The notes: generated by a model from the letters alone, not told the origin. 12,274 nucleotides of DNA from Candidatus Omnitrophota bacterium (GCA_043803685.1 JAZDJU010000105.1:1-12274); one strand, 5' to 3'; positions 1 through 12,274 are shown, numbered from the stretch's first letter. Program-made: numbers and translations.

Positions 1-954
1 CTTGTCACTTCTGCAGGCGACATCCAGGCGAAGACCGACACCATTAATTGGGCGGATGTGACTGCGGTGAAGACGAAGACTGACACAATCGCATGGGGCG
101 ATGTGACGGGTATTAAGGCGAAGACCGACACGATCACTTGGGCAGACGTTACGACCGCGAAGAACAATATCGCGACTCTTATTACGGAAGTCGGCACCGG
201 AAATATCGCCGCTATTAAGACTAAGACGGACGACATCGTTTGGGCGGATGTGACAGGGCTTGTCACAAGCGCAGGTGACATCCAGGCGAAGACCGATACG
301 ATCAATTGGGCGGATGTCACGGCGGTCAAAACGAAGACCGATACGATCGCGTGGGGCGATGTGACGGGTATCAAGGCCAAGACCGACACGATCACTTGGG
401 CAGACGTTACGACCGCAAAAAACAATATCGCGACCTTGATCACAGAAGTCGGCACGGGGAATATTGCCGCCATTAAGACCAAGACCGACGACATTGATTG
501 GGCAGACGTCACGGGACTTGTCACTTCTGCAGGCGACATTTTGGCCAAGACCGACACCATTAATTGGGCGGACGTCACAGCCGTGAAGACGAAGACTGAC
601 ACGATCGCATGGGGTGATGTGACGGGGATCAAGGCTAAAACCGATACGATCACATGGGCGGATGTCACAACCGCGAAGAACAACATCGCGACCCTTATTA
701 CAGAGGTTGGCACGGGGAATATCGCCGCCATCAAGACGAAGACCGACGATATCGACTGGGCAGACGTCACAGGACTTGTGACGACGAGTGGCGACATTCA
801 GGCCAAGACCGACACCATTAACTGGGCGGATGTGACTGCGGTGAAGACCACGACTGATACGATCGCATGGGGCGATGTGACGGGGATCAAGACAAAGACT
901 GACACTATCACATGGGGTGATGTCACTGCGATTAAGACCCAGACAGATAAGATC
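1..954 (+). repeat. Intragenic hierarchical tandem repeat: 258-bp (86-aa) super-units made of 45-bp (15-aa) sub-units
   Basis: LVT(S/T) unit starts at 1, 259, 517 and 775 (exact 258-bp period). Each unit comprises three 15-mers (AKTDTINWADVTAVK / TKTDTIAWGDVTGIK / AKTDTITWADVTTAK), a 19-mer (NNIATLITEVGTGNIAAIK) and a 22-mer (TKTDDIxWADVTGLVTSAGDIQ). The fourth copy is partial and decays at about 950. Confidence 0.97.
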
Positions 955-1989
955 ACGACAGACGTGCTGGTGGATCTGGGGCTTATCAAGGGTTATACCG
1001 ACAGTGCTGAATCTGCGATCGCGACCTTGGACGGAAAGGTTGTGGATGTTAAAACTGTCACAGATGCAACTCTTGCCATGCTTGGCACTATCAATACCGA
1101 TGGCATTGCGTCGCTTTCCGGGAAAATGGACGCGCTACAGGCGGATACGGATACGGCGCTTATCGATCTCGGGATCATTAAGGGGTATACCGATGAGACA
1201 AGAACACAGGTCACGACTCTGGACGGGAAGGTGGTGGACGTGAAAACCGTCGCAGATGCGATCAAGAGCCAAACGGATAACGTTGCCGCGGTGCTTGCTA
1301 ATGTGAATATTGCGAACGGCAAGGCGGAGGAGATCGTCGGATTAGTCAATGATGTTTTGAATAAGTGGGATGGTTATACGACCCAGGATATCATGCAATC
1401 GTTCGAAACCCTTGGGGCCCAAAGTATCGGTTCAGCCACGGATGCTACTACCTCGAACACCCTTTTTGGGAGATTGTCCTTTCTTATCTCGCAATTCGAT
1501 ACCGTGACATCGTCTCAAGTTAGCACCGTGCAGTCTGCTTCAGCGAGTAGTTTACAGCCAGCCTTGGCTGTTTCGACGACAATCGCAAAAAGCGCTCTCC
1601 AGGATGTTCAGAATTCTTACCAGGAGATCAGGTCTGCCCGCGAAATGCTCCGTGCCTCGGGGAAAAGTGAGGCGGCAAGAGCCGGCATGATGCAGGCTCA
1701 GAATTCATTGACCGGGATCAGCGGGACTCTCAGCAAGATCGAGGCTGCGCTCAACAATCCTCTCTACGGAAGGATCTTGAACATTGCCGAACAGGTCAAG
1801 AGCACGGGCATGGTCACCGGGGGTGAAACTGTTAATCAGCTCTTCGACATACCTGCCGATAAAGCAAATGACACACAGTTTATACAGGGGAAACTGCGTG
1901 AGCTTAAGGCTGCAGCCGAACTAAGCAAAGAGATAGCCGTTGCGCAGAAGGAAGCGAGTCAAGCCCCGATCATTAAAAAGGGATGGTAA
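1..1989 (+). CDS. 3' part of a large tandem-repeat protein (putative fibrous surface/secreted protein), 5'-truncated by the window
   Basis: Frame 1 is open from base 1 (ctt gtc act tct gca = LVTSA...) to TAA at 1987-1989. The track's 'start' at 58 is an internal GTG (Val) inside a repeat. Repeat copies differ almost only at synonymous positions, which supports coding in this frame. Function is inferred, not recognised. Confidence 0.9.
   Translation, partial: LVTSAGDIQAKTDTINWADVTAVKTKTDTIAWGDVTGIKAKTDTITWADVTTAKNNIATLITEVGTGNIAAIKTKTDDIVWADVTGLVTSAGDIQAKTDTINWADVTAVKTKTDTIAWGDVTGIKAKTDTITWADVTTAKNNIATLITEVGTGNIAAIKTKTDDIDWADVTGLVTSAGDILAKTDTINWADVTAVKTKTDTIAWGDVTGIKAKTDTITWADVTTAKNNIATLITEVGTGNIAAIKTKTDDIDWADVTGLVTTSGDIQAKTDTINWADVTAVKTTTDTIAWGDVTGIKTKTDTITWGDVTAIKTQTDKITTDVLVDLGLIKGYTDSAESAIATLDGKVVDVKTVTDATLAMLGTINTDGIASLSGKMDALQADTDTALIDLGIIKGYTDETRTQVTTLDGKVVDVKTVADAIKSQTDNVAAVLANVNIANGKAEEIVGLVNDVLNKWDGYTTQDIMQSFETLGAQSIGSATDATTSNTLFGRLSFLISQFDTVTSSQVSTVQSASASSLQPALAVSTTIAKSALQDVQNSYQEIRSAREMLRASGKSEAARAGMMQAQNSLTGISGTLSKIEAALNNPLYGRILNIAEQVKSTGMVTGGETVNQLFDIPADKANDTQFIQGKLRELKAAAELSKEIAVAQKEASQAPIIKKGW
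973..1260 (+). repeat. Second intragenic repeat family: two 32-aa copies 192 bp (64 aa) apart
   Basis: DLGLIKGYTDSAESAIATLDGKVVDVKTVTDA (973-1068) vs DLGIIKGYTDETRTQVTTLDGKVVDVKTVADA (1165-1260). Confidence 0.9.
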
Positions 1990-1992
1990 AGG

Positions 1993-2970
1993 ATGCCTAA
2001 GAGGGTCTTCCTCTTTTTCTTGTTAGCGTGGGGTGTGTTCGCGGGGCATTGTGTGTTTGCTGACGATCCGCGAACCGTCACTCTGAACGTCTCCGTAACG
2101 AACCCTTCTCCGGATCAGACCCGGGAGATGGATTTTAAAACGGATCTGCCTGCAGAGCTCAAACGTAACGACATTATTTCTTCGGATAACCTTAATGTGG
2201 CCTATGACTCTGGGGCCAAGGCTTTTGCGGTCCAAGGGAAGGTCAATCTTCGGCCGGGAGAAACGATATTCTACCGGATCATTGTCCGCGATGTCTGGCT
2301 CGTTTCAGAGGACGATTTCGCTGCGCTTGAGACGAAAGCCAAAAGCCTGAGATCTCCTAGCCAACGGGATTCGGTTCTTCAGCTTCTTGGCAAGATTAAG
2401 GCCCGTCAGGAACAAGGGTACGACGAGGTCCTTGATCACATAGCGATTTACAGGGAAAATTTTAAAGAACTGGATTCGATTCGGAATGAGCTTTTGACAG
2501 AACCCTTTGCCATGTCTTTCGATACCGCGACGAACCATTCGGGGTCTTTGATCGCCGTGGTTGCTTTTGGGATCTTGACCGCAGCCTCTGTAATGTTTTT
2601 TCTTGGCAAGAGCCGTAAGCCGTCAAGGCGTTCTCCCGGGAATTTCCTGGTATTATCCGAAGATGTCAGGGTGGATTGCGTTTTGCTGCCTCAGGGCAAT
2701 GTCTTGCCGTCTCCACACAGGTCCCAGGTTAAAGAGCGAGGGATCTCCATGGTTTTGGATGAGCGATACCTGGAACATGCCGCCATTGAAATGAAGGTCT
2801 TCCTGCCGGGGAGTCAGGATGCGTTCGCATTTACTGGTTTCGTGGTGCAACAATCGCCTTTGACGGGCGGTGGTAAAGATCGTTTCGAGACGCTTGTCAG
2901 CCTGGTCGAGGCCGGCGAAAACAGCTATGAAACATTGAGTCAGTACATTCAAACCCGCCCGAAGGATTAA
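1993..2970 (+). CDS. Bitopic membrane protein: signal peptide, exported domain, one TM helix, cytoplasmic degenerate PilZ-like domain
   Basis: ATG 3 nt after the upstream stop. N-terminus MPKR + hydrophobic stretch + VFA|DD looks like a Sec/SPase I signal. TM LIAVVAFGILTAASVMFFLG (2548-2607) is followed by basic KSRKPSRR. The C-terminal pattern 'GISMVL...IEMKVFLPG...F.FTG.VV....RFET.V.L......E.LSQYI' follows the PilZ barrel plus terminal helix pattern. Confidence 0.75.
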   Translation: MPKRVFLFFLLAWGVFAGHCVFADDPRTVTLNVSVTNPSPDQTREMDFKTDLPAELKRNDIISSDNLNVAYDSGAKAFAVQGKVNLRPGETIFYRIIVRDVWLVSEDDFAALETKAKSLRSPSQRDSVLQLLGKIKARQEQGYDEVLDHIAIYRENFKELDSIRNELLTEPFAMSFDTATNHSGSLIAVVAFGILTAASVMFFLGKSRKPSRRSPGNFLVLSEDVRVDCVLLPQGNVLPSPHRSQVKERGISMVLDERYLEHAAIEMKVFLPGSQDAFAFTGFVVQQSPLTGGGKDRFETLVSLVEAGENSYETLSQYIQTRPKD

Positions 2971-2976
2971 CGGATC

Positions 2977-5316
2977 GTGCCGCAAAAAAAAGTTCTCATT
3001 ATCAACGGTGACGAAGGTTTTGTCAGGATCCTCAAACTTCGCCTTGAGCCCAAGGGGTTCGATGTTTTTTACGAATATAAAATGCTCAATTCGTTCGCGA
3101 GAGTTTTCGAGATCAAACCAGATTTGATCATTCTTGATTCCTTCTTCTCGATACCGGATGGAGTGGAGGCGTTCCTTCACATCAAGAGCAATGCGCTTCT
3201 CAAGAATACGCCAGTCTTATGTATGGTGAACTCTGACGCGGAAAAGGAAGATCTTGAAGGTCTCGACATCCATCCCGAGGGGCTTCTTGTGAAACCTTAT
3301 GAATCTGAAGAGCTCTATGGATTGATCGATAGCTTGACCGCTCGCTCTGTGGAAATCCATCCGCCTGAAGAGCCTGAGGGGGGAGACGAAATTAGTGACA
3401 GCGCAGAAGCGGCTCTCGCCCACAGTTTGATCGCGGGAGGCGTGGTGGATCGTGACAAAATGAATGAATTGCTGGTCAAGACACGGGAGGGGAAGGGATC
3501 GCTTTCCAGAGAAATTGTACGGCAAGGTTTGGCCACGGAGGATGTCCTCCTATCGTTCATGGCCGAGGCTTATGGTTTGAAGTATGCCGAGATCCGGGAG
3601 GAGGACATTGAACCGGAGGCGATCAAACGGATCCCGGTCAAACACGCATCTTATTACAAGATTATGCCCGTAAAAATCGAAGATGACAAGTTGCTATGCG
3701 CGATCTCCGATCCGCTTTCTATCACCCAAGTGAAAGATGATATTCGGGTCCAATTGAACCAGAAGCTTGAATTTATCCTGGCTTCGGAAGAAAAAATTGA
3801 AGAGTGGATCAAAAGTTTCTATGGGATCGGGACCGAGACGATTGAACAGATCCTTACGACGGCTGACGGTGAGGCGGGAAAAGGAAAGACTTTAAGGCCG
3901 GAGTCGGATGAGGACATTGCGAAACTCGCGGACACTTCTTCGGTGATCAAGTTGGTGAATCAGATCCTGATCGATGCGCAGGACAGGAATGCTTCGGATA
4001 TCCATATCGAACCTTTTATGGGGAAGACCAAACTGAGGTACAGGATCGACGGTGTTCTTGTTGACGCGAAGGTTTCGCCCGAGATCAACTATTTTTTGAG
4101 CGCTATCATTTCTAGGATCAAGATCATGTCGAACCTGAATATTGTTGAGAGGAGGCTTCCTCAAGACGGTAAGGCGCGGGTCAAGATCAATAACGAGATG
4201 TTCGATCTCAGAATCTCGACATTGCCGGCCGCGCACGGGGAAAGTCTGGTGATCCGTATCCTGCCGACGCGGATGCTCTTCAGCCTGGCGAAGCTAGGAC
4301 TTTCGGATCGTGATCGGAAGCTCTTTGAGGATCTGACCCGTCGGCCCCACGGGATCCTCTTCGTGACCGGTCCGACGGGAAGTGGCAAGACGACCACTCT
4401 TTACGCATGCCTTTCGAAAATCCAGGAGGAGAAACCCGGCTATAAGATCATCACGATCGAAGACCCGATCGAATATGAGTTGGATGGGATCACGCAGCTT
4501 CAGGTCAACTCCGACATCAATTTTACTTTTGCCCGGGGACTGAAGAACATGTTGCGTCACGATCCCAACATTATGATGATCGGCGAGGTGCGCGATCTTG
4601 AAACGGCCGAGATCTCCATCCAGATGGCGCTCACCGGTCATCTTCTTTTCTCAACGTTGCATACCAACGATGCGGCGAGCGGCATTACACGATTGATCGA
4701 TATCGGGATCGAGCCGTACCTTGTAGCGTCTTCGGTCGAGGCGTTTATCTCCCAGCGTTTGGTGCGCGTTATATGTCCGCAATGCAAGTGTGAGGTCCCT
4801 CGCAACGAGGAGACAGCTCTGCAGATCACCAAGATCTGCGAGAAGATCACGACCTCCGGGGATAAACGACGGCTCGAGGATCCTGATGCTCACTTGTACC
4901 CGCGCTCCAAGCCACCCCTTTCGGCTTCTTCGTTGTCCGGGGAACGGCGACGCCTTGTGGATCCCTATGCTCATTTGTATAAGCAACCAAGTGCGACTCT
5001 GTCTTCTTCGTCCATGCACTGGCTCAGGGCTGGGGAGTCCTGTTTCAAAGGAAAGGGGTGCAAAGCATGCAATTTTACAGGTTATAAGGGAAGGACGGCG
5101 ATCTATGAGATCCTTCCCATGACGGAAAAGATCAAAGCGCTTATTCAAGAGAAAGCGACCGCGCAAGCCATCAACAAACAGGCAGTCCTGGAAGGCATGA
5201 GGACTCTCTATCAGTGCGGATTTGACAAAGTCATTTCGGGGATCACCACCTTCGAGGAAGTCCTGCGTGTGACAAAAGAGGATGTTGCCGGTCCGGATAG
5301 GATGAAAGAGCGATGA
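2977..5316 (+). CDS. gspE: GspE/PulE/PilB-family secretion ATPase with N-terminal receiver (REC)-like domain
   Basis: GTG start. Conserved motifs: ASDIHIEP, RYRIDGVL, ERRLPQDG, Walker A GPTGSGKT (4369-4392), Asp box TIEDPIE, Walker B IMMIGEVRD, His box TGHLLFSTLHTND, Zn motif CPQC...CKAC and GYKGRTAIYE. The first ~120 aa carry REC motifs (KKVLII, KPDLIILD, DG, TPV, VKPY). Confidence 0.93.
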   Translation: MPQKKVLIINGDEGFVRILKLRLEPKGFDVFYEYKMLNSFARVFEIKPDLIILDSFFSIPDGVEAFLHIKSNALLKNTPVLCMVNSDAEKEDLEGLDIHPEGLLVKPYESEELYGLIDSLTARSVEIHPPEEPEGGDEISDSAEAALAHSLIAGGVVDRDKMNELLVKTREGKGSLSREIVRQGLATEDVLLSFMAEAYGLKYAEIREEDIEPEAIKRIPVKHASYYKIMPVKIEDDKLLCAISDPLSITQVKDDIRVQLNQKLEFILASEEKIEEWIKSFYGIGTETIEQILTTADGEAGKGKTLRPESDEDIAKLADTSSVIKLVNQILIDAQDRNASDIHIEPFMGKTKLRYRIDGVLVDAKVSPEINYFLSAIISRIKIMSNLNIVERRLPQDGKARVKINNEMFDLRISTLPAAHGESLVIRILPTRMLFSLAKLGLSDRDRKLFEDLTRRPHGILFVTGPTGSGKTTTLYACLSKIQEEKPGYKIITIEDPIEYELDGITQLQVNSDINFTFARGLKNMLRHDPNIMMIGEVRDLETAEISIQMALTGHLLFSTLHTNDAASGITRLIDIGIEPYLVASSVEAFISQRLVRVICPQCKCEVPRNEETALQITKICEKITTSGDKRRLEDPDAHLYPRSKPPLSASSLSGERRRLVDPYAHLYKQPSATLSSSSMHWLRAGESCFKGKGCKACNFTGYKGRTAIYEILPMTEKIKALIQEKATAQAINKQAVLEGMRTLYQCGFDKVISGITTFEEVLRVTKEDVAGPDRMKER
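4855..5016 (+). repeat. 81-bp (27-aa) imperfect tandem duplication inside gspE
   Basis: SGDKRRLEDPDAHLYPRSKPPLSASSL (starts 4855) vs SGERRRLVDPYAHLYKQPSATLSSSSM (starts 4936). DNA similarity is visible (tccgggga...ggatcc...atgctca.ttgta). Confidence 0.9.
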
Positions 5317-6509
5317 AATTCGATTATGTTGCTAAAAAAGGCCGCAAAACAGTAACAGGCGTTATCGAGGCCCCGGACAAGGAAATGGGCATTGCCCAGC
5401 TTGAGTCCTTGGGCTATCTCCCGGTTCAGATCGAAGAAGTGGGGCCGCGGGTTATGACCGTAAAAAGTTTTTTCCCGAGAAAGATATCTCAAGAGGATAT
5501 CAACGGGTTCATGCGGGAACTGGCTATGCTGGTGAAGTCTCGCCTTCAATTGGTGAAGGCTCTGGAAAGCCTCAGTCGCGGCACCCTCCATCCGGGACTT
5601 CGAGATCTGATCGGGAGTCTTGCGGCCGAAGTGAGTCAGGGGAAGCCCTTATCTGTGGCGTTGGCCGATCACCCAAAATATTTTTCGCGCGTTTCAGTCA
5701 GCATGATCGCTGCGGGTGAACGAGGCGGCACGCTCGACAAAGTGTTGCTTCGTCTGGTGGAATATGCCGCCCGGGAAGATGATATCCGGAACAAGATCCG
5801 GTCGGCTATGGCTTACCCGCTTTTGATGGCGGCGATGGGTATTCTCACGGTTGTGGTCATGATCACGTTTGTGATGCCTAAACTCACCAAGCTGTTCTCG
5901 GATATGCAGCAAAGTCTCCCGATGCCGACCAAAATACTCATGGGGCTGAGCGCGTTCTTCAATGCGAATTGGTACTGGATGGCGCTTGTCCTCGGGGTCC
6001 TGATCATCCTGGCCAAAAAGAACCGCGTGATCGAACGGAACAAGGCCTCGATCGAAAAGATCATTTTCGATCTTCCTCTCGCCGGGAACTATATGCGTAT
6101 GAGAGGGGGCGCGCAGTTCTGCTACACGTTGAGCCTGATGCTCACCAACGGGATCCCGATCCGGGATGCTATTTCGGCGACGATCCCCACGATCGGGAGC
6201 CGCATCATCGAAGAAGAATTGAAGGCGCTTAGTTCCGGGCTTGCGGATGGCGCTTCCGTGGCCGACTGCGTTTCCAAAAGCTCGTTTTTTCCAGAGCATG
6301 TGATCAGTCTGATTAAGGTCGGCGAGGAATCCGGGCGGTTGGACGAGGTGTTGCTTGAGATCGCCACCTCCTATGACAAGAAGGTCGACGTTTCACTGAA
6401 AACGTTTAGCGCGCTTCTGGAGCCGCTCATCATCCTTGCGGTTGGTCTTGTCGTCGGGTTTATCGTGATCTCCATGATCCTTCCCGTGTTCGAATTCAAT
6501 GTGCGATAA
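5313..6509 (+). CDS. gspF: Type II secretion system F / PilC family inner-membrane platform protein
   Basis: ATGA overlap with the gspE stop. 398 aa with two GspF repeats (AGERGGTLD; VGEESGRLD), SAMAYP + TM1, TM2, and LLEPLII...SMILPVF TM3. Confidence 0.95.
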   Translation: MKFDYVAKKGRKTVTGVIEAPDKEMGIAQLESLGYLPVQIEEVGPRVMTVKSFFPRKISQEDINGFMRELAMLVKSRLQLVKALESLSRGTLHPGLRDLIGSLAAEVSQGKPLSVALADHPKYFSRVSVSMIAAGERGGTLDKVLLRLVEYAAREDDIRNKIRSAMAYPLLMAAMGILTVVVMITFVMPKLTKLFSDMQQSLPMPTKILMGLSAFFNANWYWMALVLGVLIILAKKNRVIERNKASIEKIIFDLPLAGNYMRMRGGAQFCYTLSLMLTNGIPIRDAISATIPTIGSRIIEEELKALSSGLADGASVADCVSKSSFFPEHVISLIKVGEESGRLDEVLLEIATSYDKKVDVSLKTFSALLEPLIILAVGLVVGFIVISMILPVFEFNVR

Positions 6510-6924
6510 CCGCGGACGATCCTTTAGGCGTTTTTCAAAAGGGTTTACGCTGGTCGAGCTGATGCTTGCGTTCGTGATCCTTTCCTTCGGCATCGTTTTC
6601 GTTCTCCGTTCTTTTGGTACCGCCCTGACGGCCCTCCGGAAGGTGGATGACGTCAAGACACTTTCCTGGCTGATGGAACCTCAGATGGATCAGATGATCC
6701 GAAGGTCCTGGGAGGAAATGGGAGCCAGCGAAGGGATGGTGGCGGGGGATCTGACGGCCGAGGACGGCAAAGTCTATCCCTGGAGGCTGGCGGTTGTTCC
6801 AAATTCTTTATATCCGACTTTAAATGAGGCGATACTCATTCTCTCAAAGGGTTCCGGACGTCCCGCGAGCCTTATGTCCTCCACCTATCTTCTAAAGCGC
6901 GAAGGCGATGAGAAAAAACAATAG
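6499..6924 (+). CDS. gspI: Minor pseudopilin, GspI-like
   Basis: Class III signal peptide RRFSKG|FTLVELMLAFVILSFGIVFVL with Glu+5. 141 aa, immediately before the J- and K-like genes. The 'G......YPWRL.V' pattern is typical of GspI. Confidence 0.72.
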   Translation: MCDNRGRSFRRFSKGFTLVELMLAFVILSFGIVFVLRSFGTALTALRKVDDVKTLSWLMEPQMDQMIRRSWEEMGASEGMVAGDLTAEDGKVYPWRLAVVPNSLYPTLNEAILILSKGSGRPASLMSSTYLLKREGDEKKQ

Positions 6925-7513
6925 TCGCATCTTTCGATGCCGCCAGGGATTTACGATGATAGAGCTTCTGATCACCGCTTCTCTGGTCGCGGTGCTCAGC
7001 GTGGCTGTCTTTTCCGTGCTCATGCGCGGAATGGACGTTTGGAAACGCGTCCGTTCTATGGATAGGGCCGAAGATGACGTGCGCCTCGATCTTGACAAAT
7101 TCTCGAGAGAACTGCGCACCTCTTTCGATTTTACTCCGATCGTTTTTACGGGGGAAAAAGGCCAGATCATGTTTTCCACCTATCTCCGTGCGTTTGATGG
7201 GGAAGGGCTTCCCATGGAGGCTCTCGGGAAGGTGACCTATTTTTACAGCCCTGAGGAAAAGACGCTATTCAGGCGTCAGGAGAATTACAGCGATCTTTTC
7301 CATCCGAAGCGGGCGACCTTTGAGAAGTTCATCGCGCCGGTCGAGGAAGCGGTGTTCACCTATTACGCGTTCAATCCTGCCAAACAAAAATTTGAATGGA
7401 AGGAAAAATGGAATGAGCCTTCTCGCCCTGCGGGCGTCCGGCTCACCCTTGCGATCCCAGACCATGAAAACAAAAAAAATAAACACATCGACAAAACAGT
7501 CTATTTCCAGTAA
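6908..7513 (+). CDS. gspJ: Minor pseudopilin, GspJ-like
   Basis: Class III signal RCRQG|FTMIELLITASLVAVL. Motifs 'LDKFSRELR', 'VTYFY....LFRR' and 'W..KW....P.GVRLTL' are characteristic of GspJ/PulJ. 201 aa. Confidence 0.82.
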   Translation: MRKNNSRIFRCRQGFTMIELLITASLVAVLSVAVFSVLMRGMDVWKRVRSMDRAEDDVRLDLDKFSRELRTSFDFTPIVFTGEKGQIMFSTYLRAFDGEGLPMEALGKVTYFYSPEEKTLFRRQENYSDLFHPKRATFEKFIAPVEEAVFTYYAFNPAKQKFEWKEKWNEPSRPAGVRLTLAIPDHENKKNKHIDKTVYFQ

Positions 7514-8465
7514 TCGCGGCGGAGTGCTCATCTATAGCCTTTGGGTGCTTTGCTTTCTGGCCATATTTGCGGCGGCGGTGGGGAACGCGGTGAGTCAATA
7601 TATCCGGATCGGAGCCTATTTTCAAAATAGTCCCCGTGCCCGTTACGCGGCCCAGGCGGCTCTCAAGGCCGCGGTCGATGTGCTGGCGCGTGACAAGAAC
7701 GAATATGATGCCATGACCGAGGCGTGGGTGCTCCATAACGTTTCCGAAGATCCTTTAGCCCCGAGCCTGCGGAGCGTTCCTTTGGGACAGGGAACATTCT
7801 CTTTTGAGATCATAGATGAGGCGCGCAAGATCAATCTTCGCACGGCTTCAGCAGAAACGTACGAACGCCTACTGATGCAGGTGGGGCATGCGGACGCTCA
7901 GACCGCCCATACCGTTGCTAATTCGATCCTGGATTGGCAGGATGCCGATAGTGGCACGCGGGAAGGGGGCGCGGAGAGTTTTTATTACCGCGCCTTGAAG
8001 GATTCCTATGATCCTTCCAATCGAAAGCTTGAAGTTCTCGAAGAGCTCCTTTGGATCAAGGGGATGACGCCCGATCTTTTCCGAAAGATCAGGGATTTTG
8101 TGACAATCTGGGGTGACGGGAAAATTAACATTAACACCGCTTCCCGTGAAGTGCTATTATCCGTCGGCTGTACGGCATCGCTCGCGGAAAAGATCATCGT
8201 CTATCGCAGCGGACAAGATAAGACTCCGGGTACCGAGGATGACAAAGTCTTCGATCGCATTGAGTCGATCCCGACCATGCTTTCGAGCGGGGCTTTCTTG
8301 GGCATGGAAGACGAGGCATCTCTCCTTAAATTGTATTCCATGAGCGCATTAACGGTGTCATCGATCTATTTCACGGTCAAGGCGCGTGGGACCGTGGGCG
8401 GCCGCACTGAAAGGATCGATTGCATCCTCGACAGGTCCGGAAAACTTTCTTCATGGAGAGAGTAG
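7464..8465 (+). CDS. gspK: Minor pseudopilin GspK/PulK
   Basis: Start reassigned to the in-frame ATG at 7464, giving leader MKTKKINTSTKQSISSNRG|GVLIYSLWVL without Glu+5, as in GspK. Motifs: IIDEARKINL, ILDWQDAD, EELLWIKGMT, GKININTAS..VL, L.V.S.YF.V. Overlaps the gspJ end by 50 bp. Confidence 0.9.
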   Translation: MKTKKINTSTKQSISSNRGGVLIYSLWVLCFLAIFAAAVGNAVSQYIRIGAYFQNSPRARYAAQAALKAAVDVLARDKNEYDAMTEAWVLHNVSEDPLAPSLRSVPLGQGTFSFEIIDEARKINLRTASAETYERLLMQVGHADAQTAHTVANSILDWQDADSGTREGGAESFYYRALKDSYDPSNRKLEVLEELLWIKGMTPDLFRKIRDFVTIWGDGKININTASREVLLSVGCTASLAEKIIVYRSGQDKTPGTEDDKVFDRIESIPTMLSSGAFLGMEDEASLLKLYSMSALTVSSIYFTVKARGTVGGRTERIDCILDRSGKLSSWRE

Positions 8466-8472
8466 CGTTCTG

Positions 8473-9882
8473 ATGGGAAAACGAACCGCGGTTATCGAAA
8501 AATGCGACAGCTTCATGAAGGTTGCGCTCGTTCACGGTCGGGGGCCCGGCGTGACCGTCGAACGCGTTTTGAAGGTGGATCTCGGGCCACGCTCGACCAT
8601 TGGAGAAGTTCTTCAGACGGCAGATCTGTCGTATGATGACATTATTCTTGTGGCTCCTCGCAACAACGTCATCGTCAAGCAGTTCGATCTTCCTACGACC
8701 GATCCTAAAGAAGTAAGCCAGATCATCGATATCAAGGTCGGCCGCCTTACCCCGTTCCCCAAGAAAGAATTCGTTTATGGATTCGAGGCTATTCCTGTGG
8801 AGGGGGGCGTCAGCACCAAAGCTCTTGTCGGGATCGTGCAGAATACCGTGATCAACATGTGGGTGAGTCAATTCCGCGGAGGAAGCGTTCCCGTCCAGCG
8901 TATTGTTTTCGGGTCGGAATGTTTTGCCTTGCTCGCGCCTGTCATTACGCAAAAGCTTTGTACCGAAACGTTCGCGATCTTGGATCTTGATTCCGATTCT
9001 GCCGATTTTTGCGTGATCTCCGGTTCGCGGCTTATTTTTACGAAACTGGTCCACTTCGGGACGCACGATTTGGAGCGTGGTCACTGGGAGGAACGATTCG
9101 TTGAAGAGATCCATTCCGTCTACGCGGAGTTTAAGACGCAGAATTTCCGGGTCGAGTTCAATAAGGTCATGTTTTTCAATCTTACGGATACGCAGGGCGA
9201 GGCTTTGACGGAAGTTCTCTATCAACGGTTCCAGTTGGACGCATCTCCGAGTGGGGAATCTCTCGGGAGGGTCCTTTGGACCGGTTCGGCCGAACGTAGT
9301 GTGAAGGAGCTGTATGCCCAGGGGGTCACGTTCACCAAGCTCTTTGCGGCGGCTCTATACGGTGACCGTACTGCGATTGATTTTTCGCCAGCCAATGTCA
9401 AGCAAGAGCGCGTTGCCGGAACGCAGCGAAAGGAATTCAGCAAAGTCCTCTTTCTTTTTATGGCAGTGATCGCGGCCGTGATGCTGATCGTAGGCGTTAA
9501 AGCCTATGTCAGTGAACTGCGCCTGAAGAATCTTGATGATCAGATCGCTCTCTATGAAGTCAAGGCGGCGCCTGTCAGGACTATGCTCAAGCGCATTCGT
9601 TTGGTCGAGGATAGTCGAGCGAAGTCTCATTCTGTGGTGCGCGCCATTCGCGATGTCCCTCAGAAGGTTCCCGCAGGCGTTTATCTTTCCGAGATCTCGT
9701 GTGCGCGGGATTCTGCCTTATCCATTCGCGGTACATCCCGAGACAATGCTCAGGTCTTTCTTTTCGGGGAATCACTTAGAAAGGAGCCATTGTTCCGGGA
9801 CGTCCAGGTGAAATACGTGACCAAACGAAATGATGTGAATGATTTTGAGATCTTATGTCTCATGGCGGGATCCTCGAAATGA
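8473..9882 (+). CDS. gspL: GspL-like protein (cytoplasmic PilM/actin-like domain + TM + PilN-like periplasmic domain)
   Basis: Likely start ATG 8473 (GGAGAG at 8455-8460; avoids overlap with gspK). PilM-like motifs: VIVKQFDLP..DPKEV..I......LTPF, ILDLD and LIFTKLV.FG. TM VLFLFMAVIAAVMLIVGV is followed by a coiled segment and PilN-like VP.GVYL.EI.....L.I.G and F...L...P.F..V. Confidence 0.8.
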   Translation: MGKRTAVIEKCDSFMKVALVHGRGPGVTVERVLKVDLGPRSTIGEVLQTADLSYDDIILVAPRNNVIVKQFDLPTTDPKEVSQIIDIKVGRLTPFPKKEFVYGFEAIPVEGGVSTKALVGIVQNTVINMWVSQFRGGSVPVQRIVFGSECFALLAPVITQKLCTETFAILDLDSDSADFCVISGSRLIFTKLVHFGTHDLERGHWEERFVEEIHSVYAEFKTQNFRVEFNKVMFFNLTDTQGEALTEVLYQRFQLDASPSGESLGRVLWTGSAERSVKELYAQGVTFTKLFAAALYGDRTAIDFSPANVKQERVAGTQRKEFSKVLFLFMAVIAAVMLIVGVKAYVSELRLKNLDDQIALYEVKAAPVRTMLKRIRLVEDSRAKSHSVVRAIRDVPQKVPAGVYLSEISCARDSALSIRGTSRDNAQVFLFGESLRKEPLFRDVQVKYVTKRNDVNDFEILCLMAGSSK

Positions 9883-10439
9883 AAAAACATGAGAAAGGCG
9901 TTCCTGCGATCTTACGGTTCCCCGTCCAAGGGAGAAAGTTGCTGCCGGTTACTGCCGGTCTGGTGTGCCTGGTAGCTTTGGTCCATTTTGTGTTTTGGCC
10001 GCTTCTTGCGCGTATTAATAATGTGCGCCAAAAAATTGAGGTTCGGGAGAAAATCCTCGAAGAGCTCGTCAATTTAACCGGCAATGCGGAGGAAATCGCA
10101 AGGCAATTCCCACCTTACGCGCAGTATGTTCAGGGCGGTCTCACTCAAGAAGAGCAGGAAGGGCTTTTTATGAAGGGGGTTGAAACGATCGCGAAATCAT
10201 CTGGCGTTGTGATCGTGAAACAGCAACCCTATGTGGTGAAGAACGGTGGGGATTTTCTGGACATCGATCTTCAGATCGAATTGGAAGCGCAGCTCCGAGA
10301 CATCCTTTCATTCCTTTATTCGATCGATCATTCCGATGATCTGATGCATGTCCTACAAATGCGTCTTATCCCGAAACCATCCACGGGCGCGCCATTGTTT
10401 CGATGTCAGGTGGATATCTCCAAGCGTTATATCAAATAG
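9879..10439 (+). CDS. gspM: GspM/PilO-like inner-membrane protein
   Basis: Likely start ATG 9879 (ATGA overlap with the upstream stop). N-terminal TM ending FVFWP, a coiled segment, 'VETIAKSSGV' and 'LRDILSFLYSID....M.V..M.L' ferredoxin-like PilO/GspM pattern. Position after gspL fits. Confidence 0.75.
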   Translation: MKKHEKGVPAILRFPVQGRKLLPVTAGLVCLVALVHFVFWPLLARINNVRQKIEVREKILEELVNLTGNAEEIARQFPPYAQYVQGGLTQEEQEGLFMKGVETIAKSSGVVIVKQQPYVVKNGGDFLDIDLQIELEAQLRDILSFLYSIDHSDDLMHVLQMRLIPKPSTGAPLFRCQVDISKRYIK

Positions 10440-10637: not shown

Positions 10638-12274
10638 ATGCTGACTCAACTTCACATCAAAAATTTCGCGTTGATCGAAGATCTGAAGCTCGAATTCTCC
10701 GGGCAATTGAATGTGCTTACGGGGGAAACGGGCGCGGGGAAGTCCATTTTGATCGATGCGATACGGTTCGTTTTGGGCGAACGCATGGAAGGACTCAGGG
10801 TCGAGTCGAATGATAAACCCTGTCAGGTGGAGGCCGCGTTCGAGCTTTGCGAGGATCTTCTAAAAAAACAGTCCGTTTTTGAACCGTATCTCGCCGAAGA
10901 AGGCCTGCTCGTCCTGCGTCGGGAATTTTCCAACGGAAAGACTCGCGCGTGGATCAATCACCGGTTGGCGCCGCTTTCCGTTTTGAAAGAAGTCGGCGCT
11001 TATCTGGTCGATATCCACGGCCAGTATGATCACCAGCGGCTTCTCGATAGCGCGTCCCATCTGGATCTCCTTGACCGTCTCGCGAAGATCGACCCCTTGA
11101 GGGAAGGTTACCGGGTCCTTTATGAGCAGTATTCCCGGCTGACCAAGGAACAGGAAGATCTCACGGCGCTTGAGGAGCACAAGGAGCGGGAGATGGACGT
11201 GCTGAAATACCAGGTGGATGAGATCGAGCATGCGGAGATCCAGGATCTCGATGAAGAGGCTCTGGAGCTTGAACGGATGCGGCTTGCCAACGCTGAAAAG
11301 CTCGCGGAGATCGTGTCTCATGCGCTCGCGGTGCTGGATGAGAATGACACGACCGCGGACAGCTTTTTGTCCGAAGCCGTGCGCGATCTCAAAGGCCTGG
11401 TCAAATTCGACAGTTCGGTTGAAAAAGTCAAAACCGATTGCGAGAACGTTCAGTATTCCTTGCAGGAAGCGGTCCGCGCGTTGAGGGATTACAGGGATAA
11501 GCTGACGTTCGATCCGGACCGTCTCCGGGAGCTTGAGAAAAAGGCGGACCTTCTGGCCCATCTCAAACGGAAATATGGCGGTACCCACGCCAAGGTGCTC
11601 GAATTCTATCAGAGCGCCAAAGCGAAATACGATAAGCTGATCGACGTGGATATGGCGAAAAGCGACCTTCAAAAAGATATTCGCGACCTGGAACCGAAGC
11701 TCCGTGAGGCCGCTCTTAAGTTCTCTGAGAAACGGAAAAAGGCGGGGGCATTCCTTAAAAGGACCATTGAATCCGAATTGAAGGATCTCCAGATCGCGCA
11801 CGCTGAGTTCGAGGTGCGGATCGAAGAGACGGATTTCTCGGCGGAGGGGATGGATCGCGTGGAATTCCTGGCACGAATGAATCCGGGCCAGCCGATGCTC
11901 GCGATCGCGAAGATCATTTCCGGAGGCGAGGCTTCTCGTGTGATGCTCGCCATGAAAAAAGCGCTCATGCAGGTCGACTCTGTTCCTGTGCTCATCTTTG
12001 ATGAGATCGATACTAATATCGGTGGCCGCTTGGGCCATGTCACAGGCCAAAAACTCAAAAGTATTTCGGGCGAGCGGCAAGTGTTGCTGGTGACCCATCT
12101 TCCGCAGATCGCGTCTTTCGCGGACCGGCATATCAAAGTGACGAAGTCCGTTCAAAAAGGGCGGACGCTCGTTCAATATCAATTGCTGGAGGGAGAGGAC
12201 AAGGTTCGCGAGCTGGCGCAGATGATGAGCGGCCAGAAGGAAAGCGAGATCTCGCGTCGCCATGCTGAGGAAAT
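10638..12274 (+). CDS. recN: DNA repair protein RecN (3'-truncated by the window, close to its C-terminus)
   Basis: ATG 10638: MLTQLHIKNFALIEDLKLEFSGQLNVLTGETGAGKSILIDA (Walker A). Further motifs: LVDIHGQYDHQRLL (Q-loop), coiled coil, NPGQP, IISGGEASRVML (signature), LIFDEIDTNIGG (Walker B/D-loop), VTHLPQIA and ELAQMMSG, all in the same frame. Absent from the ORF track because there is no stop in the window. Confidence 0.97.
   Translation, partial: MLTQLHIKNFALIEDLKLEFSGQLNVLTGETGAGKSILIDAIRFVLGERMEGLRVESNDKPCQVEAAFELCEDLLKKQSVFEPYLAEEGLLVLRREFSNGKTRAWINHRLAPLSVLKEVGAYLVDIHGQYDHQRLLDSASHLDLLDRLAKIDPLREGYRVLYEQYSRLTKEQEDLTALEEHKEREMDVLKYQVDEIEHAEIQDLDEEALELERMRLANAEKLAEIVSHALAVLDENDTTADSFLSEAVRDLKGLVKFDSSVEKVKTDCENVQYSLQEAVRALRDYRDKLTFDPDRLRELEKKADLLAHLKRKYGGTHAKVLEFYQSAKAKYDKLIDVDMAKSDLQKDIRDLEPKLREAALKFSEKRKKAGAFLKRTIESELKDLQIAHAEFEVRIEETDFSAEGMDRVEFLARMNPGQPMLAIAKIISGGEASRVMLAMKKALMQVDSVPVLIFDEIDTNIGGRLGHVTGQKLKSISGERQVLLVTHLPQIASFADRHIKVTKSVQKGRTLVQYQLLEGEDKVRELAQMMSGQKESEISRRHAEE

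Follow-up and report, generated by a model that had tools for sequence, protein, structure and literature searches.

A putative split, membrane-anchored surface fibre encoded directly before a type II secretion-like machine in Candidatus Omnitrophota

The stretch of DNA considered here (the window) is the whole of contig C105, 12,274 bases from a Candidatus Omnitrophota genome of 2.89 Mb in 133 contigs, and it carries the end of a large repeat-protein gene (ORF1), a small membrane-protein gene (ORF2) and a run of genes resembling those of a type II secretion system (T2SS). The reading that we favour by a modest degree is that ORF1 and ORF2 are the two parts of a split membrane-anchored surface fibre, and that the adjoining T2SS-like machine likely extends, exposes or moves this fibre. 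An initial annotation of the same DNA had tied the machine to the fibre-like protein and had taken ORF2 for a PilZ-like module giving input to that machine; the tie between ORF1 and the machine is borne out by comparison with other loci, and the role given to ORF2 is revised. The affiliation with Omnitrophota, which that annotation had raised, fits the Atlas neighbours.

The nature of ORF2 emerges from the proteins that share its outer domain. A search of 1.84 billion representative proteins returned 67 homologues of ORF1, and an anchor-domain hidden Markov model (HMM) built from ORF2 residues 23–172 matches 13 of them right after the ORF1-like end (E 4e-17 to 5e-28); in P0022, for example, the ORF1-like part stops at 3631 and the anchor domain occupies 3648–3799. 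The same HMM matches the end of a 5,861-residue giant protein on contig C75 of the window's own genome, and it matches twice in a 645-residue protein on contig C130 that ends in a GGDEF domain. Since the anchor domain is fused to ORF1-like ends elsewhere, ORF1 and ORF2 appear to be the split form of one polypeptide, and ORF2 is, as judged by sequence comparison, a detached membrane-anchor module and not mainly a signalling gene. The earlier description of it as a transmembrane (TM)/PilZ-like gene giving input to the machine does not suit the protein as a whole; in many relatives, the outer domain is joined to the giant protein as its anchor.

The outer domain of ORF2 was found in 21 of 41 related genomes and, phylum-wide, in 194 of 401 sampled genomes (172 of 341 high-quality genomes; 136 of 282 genera). 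Its hosts are either small proteins of 235–480 residues or open frames of up to 12,861 residues, where it stands at the extreme end; in relatives, it lies inside open frames of 6,958, 3,194, and 3,167 residues. Small anchor proteins in the relatives inspected consist of a signal peptide, two domain copies, a TM helix and a short tail, and the cytoplasmic tails of anchors vary, with a degenerate PilZ domain here and a GGDEF domain or nothing elsewhere. ORF2 itself has six full-length orthologues (47–68% identity), and its structural model combines a signal peptide, a beta-sandwich (residues 28–99), three helices (106–168), the TM helix, and a C-terminal beta-barrel with a final helix (218–320); the predicted topology places the ectodomain outside the inner membrane and the PilZ-like tail in the cytoplasm. 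The beta-sandwich gave no specific fold match, a PDB sequence search with the ORF2 profile returned nothing below E 0.2, and the same profile has no similarity to the GspE-PilZ protein of C75.

The giant proteins encoded before separate anchor genes share a C-terminal tail in which a helical stretch is followed by a short hydrophobic strand ending in an aromatic residue, with AIVKSWLE and PIIEGWLEQG as typical endings. This tail is present in ORF1, in its homologue on the metagenome contig L018, in the C130 giant protein, in the loci of 14 relatives and in G220, and the closing aromatic residue is mostly W, with Y in G024 and in the fused protein of G015. In the fused C75 protein, the tail strand is separated by four residues from the first strand of the anchor domain. 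When ORF2 residues 24–172 were modelled together with ORF1 residues 540–662, the complex score was 0.66, against 0.01 for the best of three controls. Of the solved complexes, 116 of 157 attain the mark reached by this model; of the mismatched pairs, 2 of 215 do. The runs share at least 88% of contacts, and the partner predicted local distance difference test (pLDDT) value is at least 71. In the complex model, ORF1 residues 652–662 pair with residues 30–40 of ORF2, that is, with its first strand, which includes the invariant SVTNPS; the ORF1 tail is predicted to dock on the outer beta-sandwich of ORF2 as an added strand.

ORF1 itself is probably the C-terminal end of a large exported protein. 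Its longer homologues span 2,000–4,250 residues and carry LamG_3, FG-GAP, DUF2341, MG2, Ig-like or SH3 domains, and a clear signal-peptide-like N-terminus was present in 4 of the 16 homologues whose termini were inspected (P0014, P0050, P0072, and P0058), which speaks against the short or cytoplasmic protein that the initial annotation had named as a way for its proposal to fail. The C-terminal end of P0014 and P0050 reads ...NEPVVKTWFEAGY and that of ORF1 ...QAPIIKKGW. At the DNA level, ORF1 contains a tandem repeat of 258 nucleotides (nt) in 3.6 copies (84% matches; Tandem Repeats Finder, TRF, score 1237) with a 45-nt sub-period, which at the protein level corresponds to 86-residue super-repeats of 15-residue KTDTIxWxDVTxxK units (nt 1 to about 960), followed by long helices and a free tail. 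No match to ORF1 was found in Pfam, NCBIfam or PHROG. In its AlphaFold model, the repeats form short strands and helices, residues ∼350–650 form long confident helices and the last dozen residues are free; a fold search with this model returned generic helical bundles only.

Two further observations concern the giant genes. The three full 86-residue copies of the ORF1 repeat (window positions 1–774) differ by 34–40 synonymous and 1–2 non-synonymous codons, with 34–40 differences at third positions vs. 1–3 each at positions 1 and 2, and their DNA is about 83–85% identical and their protein nearly identical, a pattern that points either to very strong purifying selection acting on every copy or to selection that favours divergence of the DNA. 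The repeat is on no other contig of its own genome, the N-terminal part of ORF1 is not in the assembly, and the genome holds no contig-end LamG giant gene; a search for ORF1 in 40 relatives gave one weak match, and the sole syntenic metagenome contig (L018) also breaks inside the ORF1 repeats. In 7 of 14 relatives' loci (L040, L042, L046, L048, L049, L051, and L053), the contig ends 1.3–1.7 kb before the anchor gene, inside the giant gene. Because these seven loci, the window and L018 all break there, the giant genes of this locus type seem to be systematically truncated in assemblies.

The position of the fibre genes directly before the machine is conserved well beyond the window. Contig L018 has the same order, with homologues of ORF1 and ORF2 (61% each), REC-GspE, GspF, a pseudopilin, and J-, K-, L-, and M-like genes; a release-factor gene stands there after gspM in place of recN, and since the downstream genes differ between the two contigs, the module is taken to end at gspM. 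In 18 of the 21 related genomes with the anchor domain, a co-occurrence search found it on the contig and strand of the closest GspE paralogue, 5–7 kb before that gene; this count rests on the matches listed, beyond which there were 55 GspE matches, and the other three assemblies are fragmented. In each of the 14 upstream regions examined, a single long frame lies on the same strand, its length ranging from 383 to more than 4,954 residues (eleven cut by the contig end, two by the stretch fetched and one, of 1,288 residues, whole). On C75 (9,000–41,900), the 5,861-residue giant fused to its anchor is followed by F1 b/delta, alpha, gamma, and beta genes, GspE-PilZ, and GspF, and then by a peptidase MA gene, pseudopilins, and K-, PilMN-, and M-like genes. 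The order on C130 (1–26,200) is that of C75, but with a 3,017-residue giant, the separate 645-residue anchor-GGDEF protein, an epsilon subunit and GspG. The E, F, pseudopilin, J, K, L, and M proteins of the window each match their C75 and C130 counterparts, so that the genome holds three paralogous loci.

Similar arrangements occur in two other families of the phylum, represented by G088 and G220, whose ORF1-like proteins precede an F1-like ATPase, GspE, GspF, pseudopilins, GspK, PilMN, and GspM, and the G088 locus additionally has an AAA_22 protein and a secretin; with L018, these two genomes show ORF1-type proteins linked to gsp-like clusters elsewhere, as the initial annotation had expected. 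Between the ORF1-like giant and the F1-like genes of G088 lies a '23S rRNA intervening sequence protein' gene (L038 17049–17420; PF05635, 98.5 bits). Fifteen anchor loci, one per genome, were taken from the top 45 matches with a preference for room downstream and not at random, and 13 of them had at least 13 kb downstream. Nine of these 13 phylum-wide loci contain the anchor, F1 alpha, F1 beta, GspE, and GspF, and one (G238, from another family of the phylum) contains the anchor, GspE, GspF, and GspK without F1 genes.

The locus in the window appears to be a derived copy of the giant-gene/F1-like ATPase/T2SS-like locus of the phylum. In a quick maximum-likelihood tree with a midpoint root, the GspE proteins of the window and L018 pair up (Shimodaira–Hasegawa-like approximate likelihood ratio test, SH-aLRT, 100) inside the F1-linked clade (95), as sister (96) to a subclade with C75; this gives GspE the phylogenetic placement that the initial annotation had suggested seeking. 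A C-terminal PilZ domain is present on 5 of the 8 GspE proteins of the C75 subclade, the other three being incomplete in the stretches fetched. In the G238 anchor, a single copy of the domain is joined to a TM helix and a true PilZ domain, and downstream of this anchor are REC-MshEN-GspE, GspF, GspG, a further pseudopilin (N_methyl only), and GspJ-, K-, L-, and M/O-like genes. Its REC domain scores 55.8 bits, and its GspE is 49% identical to that of the window over a main alignment of 608 columns from residue 1. In a phylum search for REC-GspE fusions, only the G238 gene covered REC among the matches listed; two candidates per genome were scored in that search, which missed the window's own gene. 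A derived subtype that is F1-less, with the receiver on GspE and PilZ on the anchor, appears to be common to the window, L018, and G238, and the lineage of the window may have lost the F1-like ATPase genes and gained the GspE receiver domain.

Among the machine genes, the REC domain (PF00072) on GspE scores 32.0 bits against a Pfam cut-off of 30.2, the T2SSE domain (PF00437) of the same protein scores 418.7 bits, and an MshEN domain was also called on it; GspF matches PF00482 at 192.5 bits, and the further Pfam calls are N_methyl, T2SSJ, T2SSK_1st, and PilN. The best NCBIfam family is a Gsp family for each machine protein matched except the GspL-like one (PilM), and all scores are below the curated cut-offs: GspE reaches 547.7 bits with TIGR02533 vs. 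an equivalog cut-off of 630, GspF 303 with TIGR02120 vs. 424, GspK 124.9 vs. 130, GspI 26.8, and GspJ 26.1. The GspM call is weak (T2SSM_b, E 0.0019; NCBIfam GspM, 47.8 bits vs. a cut-off of 60). A word-index search with GspE residues 1–320 gave three REC-GspE orthologues. Residues D12, E13, D54, S86, and K106 of the receiver, which include the positions we take to be the acceptor Asp and the conserved Lys, are invariant in 4/4 orthologues, and the ATPase motifs are intact, with Walker A and both Cys pairs kept. Relative to the three orthologues, GspE has a 29-residue insert between the Cys pairs of the zinc-site region (window about 4870–5007), which duplicates an RRLxDPxAHLY unit. In five relatives (G011:C65, G001:C4, G014:C6, G006:C120, and G008:C76), a distant PilB/GspE paralogue (35–38% identity) matches REC-GspE from residue 3/4 to 604–605; this match contains one or two internal stops, and the receiver gene there is seemingly separate and directly before the ATPase gene.

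Several T2SS components are missing from the window. No window protein matches T2SSG, the 141-residue pseudopilin resembling GspI and the non-G pseudopilin of C130, and T2SSG is present in the C130, G220, and G238 loci. The window has no secretin gene (five are found elsewhere in the genome, one of them ∼5 kb beyond the C75 locus), no GspC gene, which was sought by Pfam scan only, and no prepilin peptidase gene (the genome has one Peptidase_A24 gene, on C79). The ATP-synt families have no match in the window. The secretin and the major pseudopilin would be supplied from elsewhere in the genome.

The tail of ORF2 had been called PilZ-like, which stands at the level of fold and ancestry. ORF2 has no Pfam match at E 0.01 or better, and its tail is not recognized by the PilZ profile (PF07238). 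In Foldseek comparisons with the PilZ structures 5vx6, 7lkm, 3dsg, and 4fou, the tail gave probabilities of 0.98–1.00 and E-values of only 0.018–0.13; residues 211–325 of the model aligned with eight PilZ entries (VIA) at Z 6.6–7.6 and a root-mean-square deviation of 3.1–3.9 over 81–99 residues, and the Atlas neighbours of ORF2 include PilZ clusters. The tail of the G238 anchor passes PF07238 (40.2 bits vs. a cut-off of 22.5), and ORF2 residues 15–322 align with that anchor at 27% identity (E 2e-31); because this relative has a true PilZ domain, the ORF2 tail may be taken as a PilZ homologue, in agreement with the fold matches. Binding of cyclic di-GMP (c-di-GMP) by PilZ domains involves the motifs RxxxR and (D/N)xSxxG. 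The aligned columns read RRAFAR and NISEGG in G238 and PGNFLV and QVKERG in ORF2, and the ORF2 orthologues likewise have no RxxxR. By these motif definitions, the ORF2 tail has probably lost c-di-GMP binding.

In the proposed mechanism, ORF1 would be a large Sec-exported fibre whose tail strand inserts into ORF2 and so ties it to the inner membrane, and the adjoining T2SS-like motor would work on the fibre thus anchored or on the way it crosses the envelope; that the motor acts on the fibre is suggested because the synteny between anchor and machine survives the loss of the F1 genes. The receiver domain would control GspE, and the degenerate PilZ tail would serve as an adaptor towards the ATPase, not as a c-di-GMP sensor. 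The machine may also export ORF1, as was initially proposed. Several points weigh against this reading. That the genes form one unit, as initially read, is presumed from their order and spacing, and an inner-membrane-anchored protein would be an odd T2SS cargo. Lacking secretin, GspG, GspC, and prepilin peptidase genes, the window alone cannot build a complete T2SS, and for 3 of the 13 anchor genes sampled, neither a GspE nor an F1 gene lies within 15 kb. The placement of GspE rests on the quick, midpoint-rooted tree. As the N-terminus of ORF1 is missing, homologues of at most 71% identity are the basis for the signal peptide and size given to it. The complex model, for which our own alignments were used, may do no more than repeat the contact made within one chain in the fused forms, and the confidence of the single-chain models is modest (mean pLDDT 67 for ORF2 and 68 for ORF1).

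In the main rival reading, to which we give a substantial but clearly smaller share of belief, the T2SS-like genes encode an ordinary type IV-like pilus or pseudopilus that serves attachment or motility; the machine would then share only its regulation with the anchored adhesin and would not handle the fibre. Such clusters have been read as type IVa pili (T4aP) for attachment, with giant open reading frames handled separately in the parts of the paper available (Seymour et al., 2023). The absence of secretin and GspC from the window fits a pilus, and homologues with their own Sec signal and their own anchor suggest that the fibre needs no further export. However, the anchor stays directly before the machine even in F1-less loci: in the window, 3 nt separate ORF1 from ORF2 and 6 nt ORF2 from GspE, and L018 and G238 keep this order. 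Of pseudopilins, the window encodes only the GspI/J/K-like ones of a tip, a major pilin gene being absent, and regulatory domains (PilZ and GGDEF) occur on either the anchor or GspE. A more elaborate version of fibre handling is offered as speculation, and we regard it as rather unlikely in all its details: a secretion-type motor would have become a fibre-deployment machine with an anchor family of its own, present in roughly half of the Omnitrophota genomes sampled, and a strand-insertion dock; the anchor tail would couple to GspE, a tip made of GspI/J/K only would push or rotate the fibre through the envelope, and receiver phosphorylation would replace the F1-like ATPase and the c-di-GMP input.

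It is improbable that ORF1 leaves the cell through a secretin as a classical soluble T2SS cargo, with ORF2 as a periplasmic membrane-bound chaperone or pilot. This would agree with the Gsp families being the best matches of the machine genes, with the five secretins elsewhere in the genome and the secretin of the G088 locus, and with ORF1 and ORF2 being separate proteins in the window, but many homologues are covalently fused to the anchor and a TM helix, which rules out release for them, and every Gsp match lies under its curated cut-off. A prophage tail-fibre-like ORF1 with an accidental gsp neighbourhood, brought to mind by its repeat-rich, fibre-like sequence and by weak Phage_BR0599 matches in two distant homologues, was rejected as very improbable, since neither ORF1 nor ORF2 has a PHROG match, Pfam found no phage genes among the window proteins, and the synteny with the machine is kept across families of the phylum.

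Parts of this picture have been described for Omnitrophota. Non-respiratory F-type ATPases co-located with 'T4aP' clusters occur in all Omnitrophota classes, and the F1-like ATPase loci were compared with the gliding machinery of Mycoplasma mobile (Seymour et al., 2023, PMC10066038). West-Roberts et al. (2023, bioRxiv 10.1101/2023.11.21.568195) reported T2SS-like loci that lie upstream of giant genes, which are themselves directly followed by small PilZ genes, and T2SS/type IV pilus (T4P) flanks and topologies with a signal peptide and TM helix have been counted (bioRxiv 10.64898/2026.06.07.730766). In the sections of these sources available, the giant genes beside T2SS/T4P-like and F1-like loci and the PilZ genes after giants are thus already published, and the giant genes next to T2SS genes that the initial annotation mentioned do have a literature. 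The anchor domain, the tail docking, the split and fused forms, and the REC/PilZ/F1-less subtype are not described in those sections of the three papers, supplements aside.

The loci described by Seymour et al. (2023) as type-2/3 F-type ATPase + T4aP loci resemble that of the window in that its GspE nests in the F1-linked clade and its paralogues on C75 and C130 carry F1 genes; they differ in that the window, L018, and G238 have no F1-like genes (the criterion being within 10 kb of pilus-type genes), that GspE bears a receiver, and that, in the parts of the paper available, no upstream giant gene or anchor protein is tied to the loci. In the loci of West-Roberts et al. (2023), as given in the available text, a large gene likewise adjoins gspE/gspF-type genes and a PilZ-type gene directly follows the large gene. 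There, however, the T2SS-like locus lies upstream of the giant gene and has gspD, rcpC, and a peptidyl-prolyl isomerase (PPIase) gene, whereas the window machine is downstream and of the GspE-F-I-J-K-L-M type, and the 'PilZ gene' is here a membrane anchor with an outer docking domain. Canonical T2SS (Pul/Gsp/Xcp) share with the window GspE, GspF, the I/J/K minor pseudopilins, and GspL/M-like proteins in a tight cluster; in contrast, the window has no GspD, GspC, GspG, GspH, or GspO, carries a receiver on the ATPase, and has a giant protein and its anchor in front. Similarly, the Xanthomonas PilZ-PilB(-FimX) adaptor system (PDB 7lkm, 3dsg, and 4fou, by entry titles) places a PilZ fold, probably not c-di-GMP-binding, beside a PilB/GspE-type ATPase, but in the window the PilZ-like domain forms the cytoplasmic end of a membrane protein that has a large outer domain.

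The gliding machinery of Mycoplasma mobile pairs an F1-like ATPase with giant surface 'leg' proteins. The paralogous loci of the window's genome likewise hold the genes of a giant surface protein and of a non-respiratory F1-like ATPase together; unlike them, the window copy has no such ATPase, and a T2SS-like machine is always present in these loci. Large pilus-associated adhesins of the MshQ/PilY1 type have a LamG/DUF2341-type head and are encoded next to pilus genes. For the present locus, LamG_3, DUF2341, and FG-GAP are known from ORF1 homologues only, the N-terminal part of ORF1 being unassembled.

The giant genes of Omnitrophota are thought to serve attachment to, or predation on, other cells, and the locus offers a concrete and testable answer as to how one class of giant protein may be held, with a conserved anchor module, a conserved tail predicted to plug into it and a fixed place before the motor. 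With the split form, binding can be tested on a tail of 11 residues and a domain of 150, both small enough to express without the giant protein. In the F1-less REC/PilZ subtype, the link between fibre and T2SS-like machine persists without an F1-like ATPase, which separates two roles that are confounded in the published loci.

Table 1. Coordinates of the genes and protein parts in the window, with the basis of each assignment.
Feature	Coordinates	Strand	Basis
ORF1, large repeat protein, C-terminal 662 residues, 5' end cut by contig start	1..1989	+	open frame, TRF, homologues
ORF1 C-terminal tail, residues 652-662 (...ASQAPIIKKGW), predicted dock on ORF2	1954..1986	+	complex model
ORF2, 325 residues, putative membrane anchor	1993..2970	+	orthologues, model, fold matches
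ORF2 signal peptide, residues 1-23
ORF2 outer beta-sandwich and three helices, residues 24-172	2062..2508
ORF2 TM helix, residues 183-206	2539..2610
ORF2 cytoplasmic degenerate PilZ-like beta-barrel, residues 213-325	2629..2967
REC-MshEN-GspE ATPase, 779 residues	2977..5316	+	Pfam, NCBIfam
Receiver of GspE, residues 6-116	2992..3324
GspF-like platform protein	5313..6509	+	Pfam, NCBIfam
GspI-like minor pseudopilin, prepilin motif KGFTLVE	6499..6924	+	Pfam, NCBIfam, paralogue comparison
GspJ-like minor pseudopilin	6908..7513	+	Pfam, NCBIfam
GspK-like minor pseudopilin	7464..8465	+	start uncertain: 7320, 7464 or 7524
GspL-like protein: PilM-like cytoplasmic part, TM helix, PilN-like part	8473..9882	+	Pfam, NCBIfam
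GspM/PilO-like protein, last gene of module	9855..10439	+	weak profile matches, synteny
recN, outside module	10638..12272	+	passes TIGR00634 cut-off

Ten genes, all co-directional, fill the window (Table 1). The short gaps that the initial annotation had noted before ORF2 and REC-GspE are as described: the ORF1 stop TAA at 1987–1989 lies 3 nt before the ORF2 ATG at 1993, and the ORF2 stop at 2968–2970 lies 6 nt before the GspE GTG at 2977. The tight packing from GspE to gspM was also found as reported, with overlaps of 4 nt (GspE/GspF), 11 nt (GspF/pseudopilin), 17 nt (pseudopilin/GspJ-like), and 28 nt (GspL-like/GspM-like), a GspK-like frame that overlaps the GspJ-like gene, and a GspL-like ATG 7 nt past the GspK-like stop. 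Promoter and terminator scans of the window were at chance level (10 vs. 8.2 expected and 14 vs. 13.2 expected), and a hairpin at 1999–2015 is not kept in L018. ORF1 and ORF2 are in one reading frame, with TAA AGG and then ATG between stop and start (window 1987–1995), and the ORF1 homologue and ORF2 of L018 are likewise in frame (1996–2004); read-through of the ORF1 stop would recreate a fused protein, yet ORF2 has its own conserved signal peptide. The recN gene begins about 200 nt past gspM, and a 467-residue open frame without a family match on the opposite strand (10860–12263, −) is read as a shadow frame of recN.

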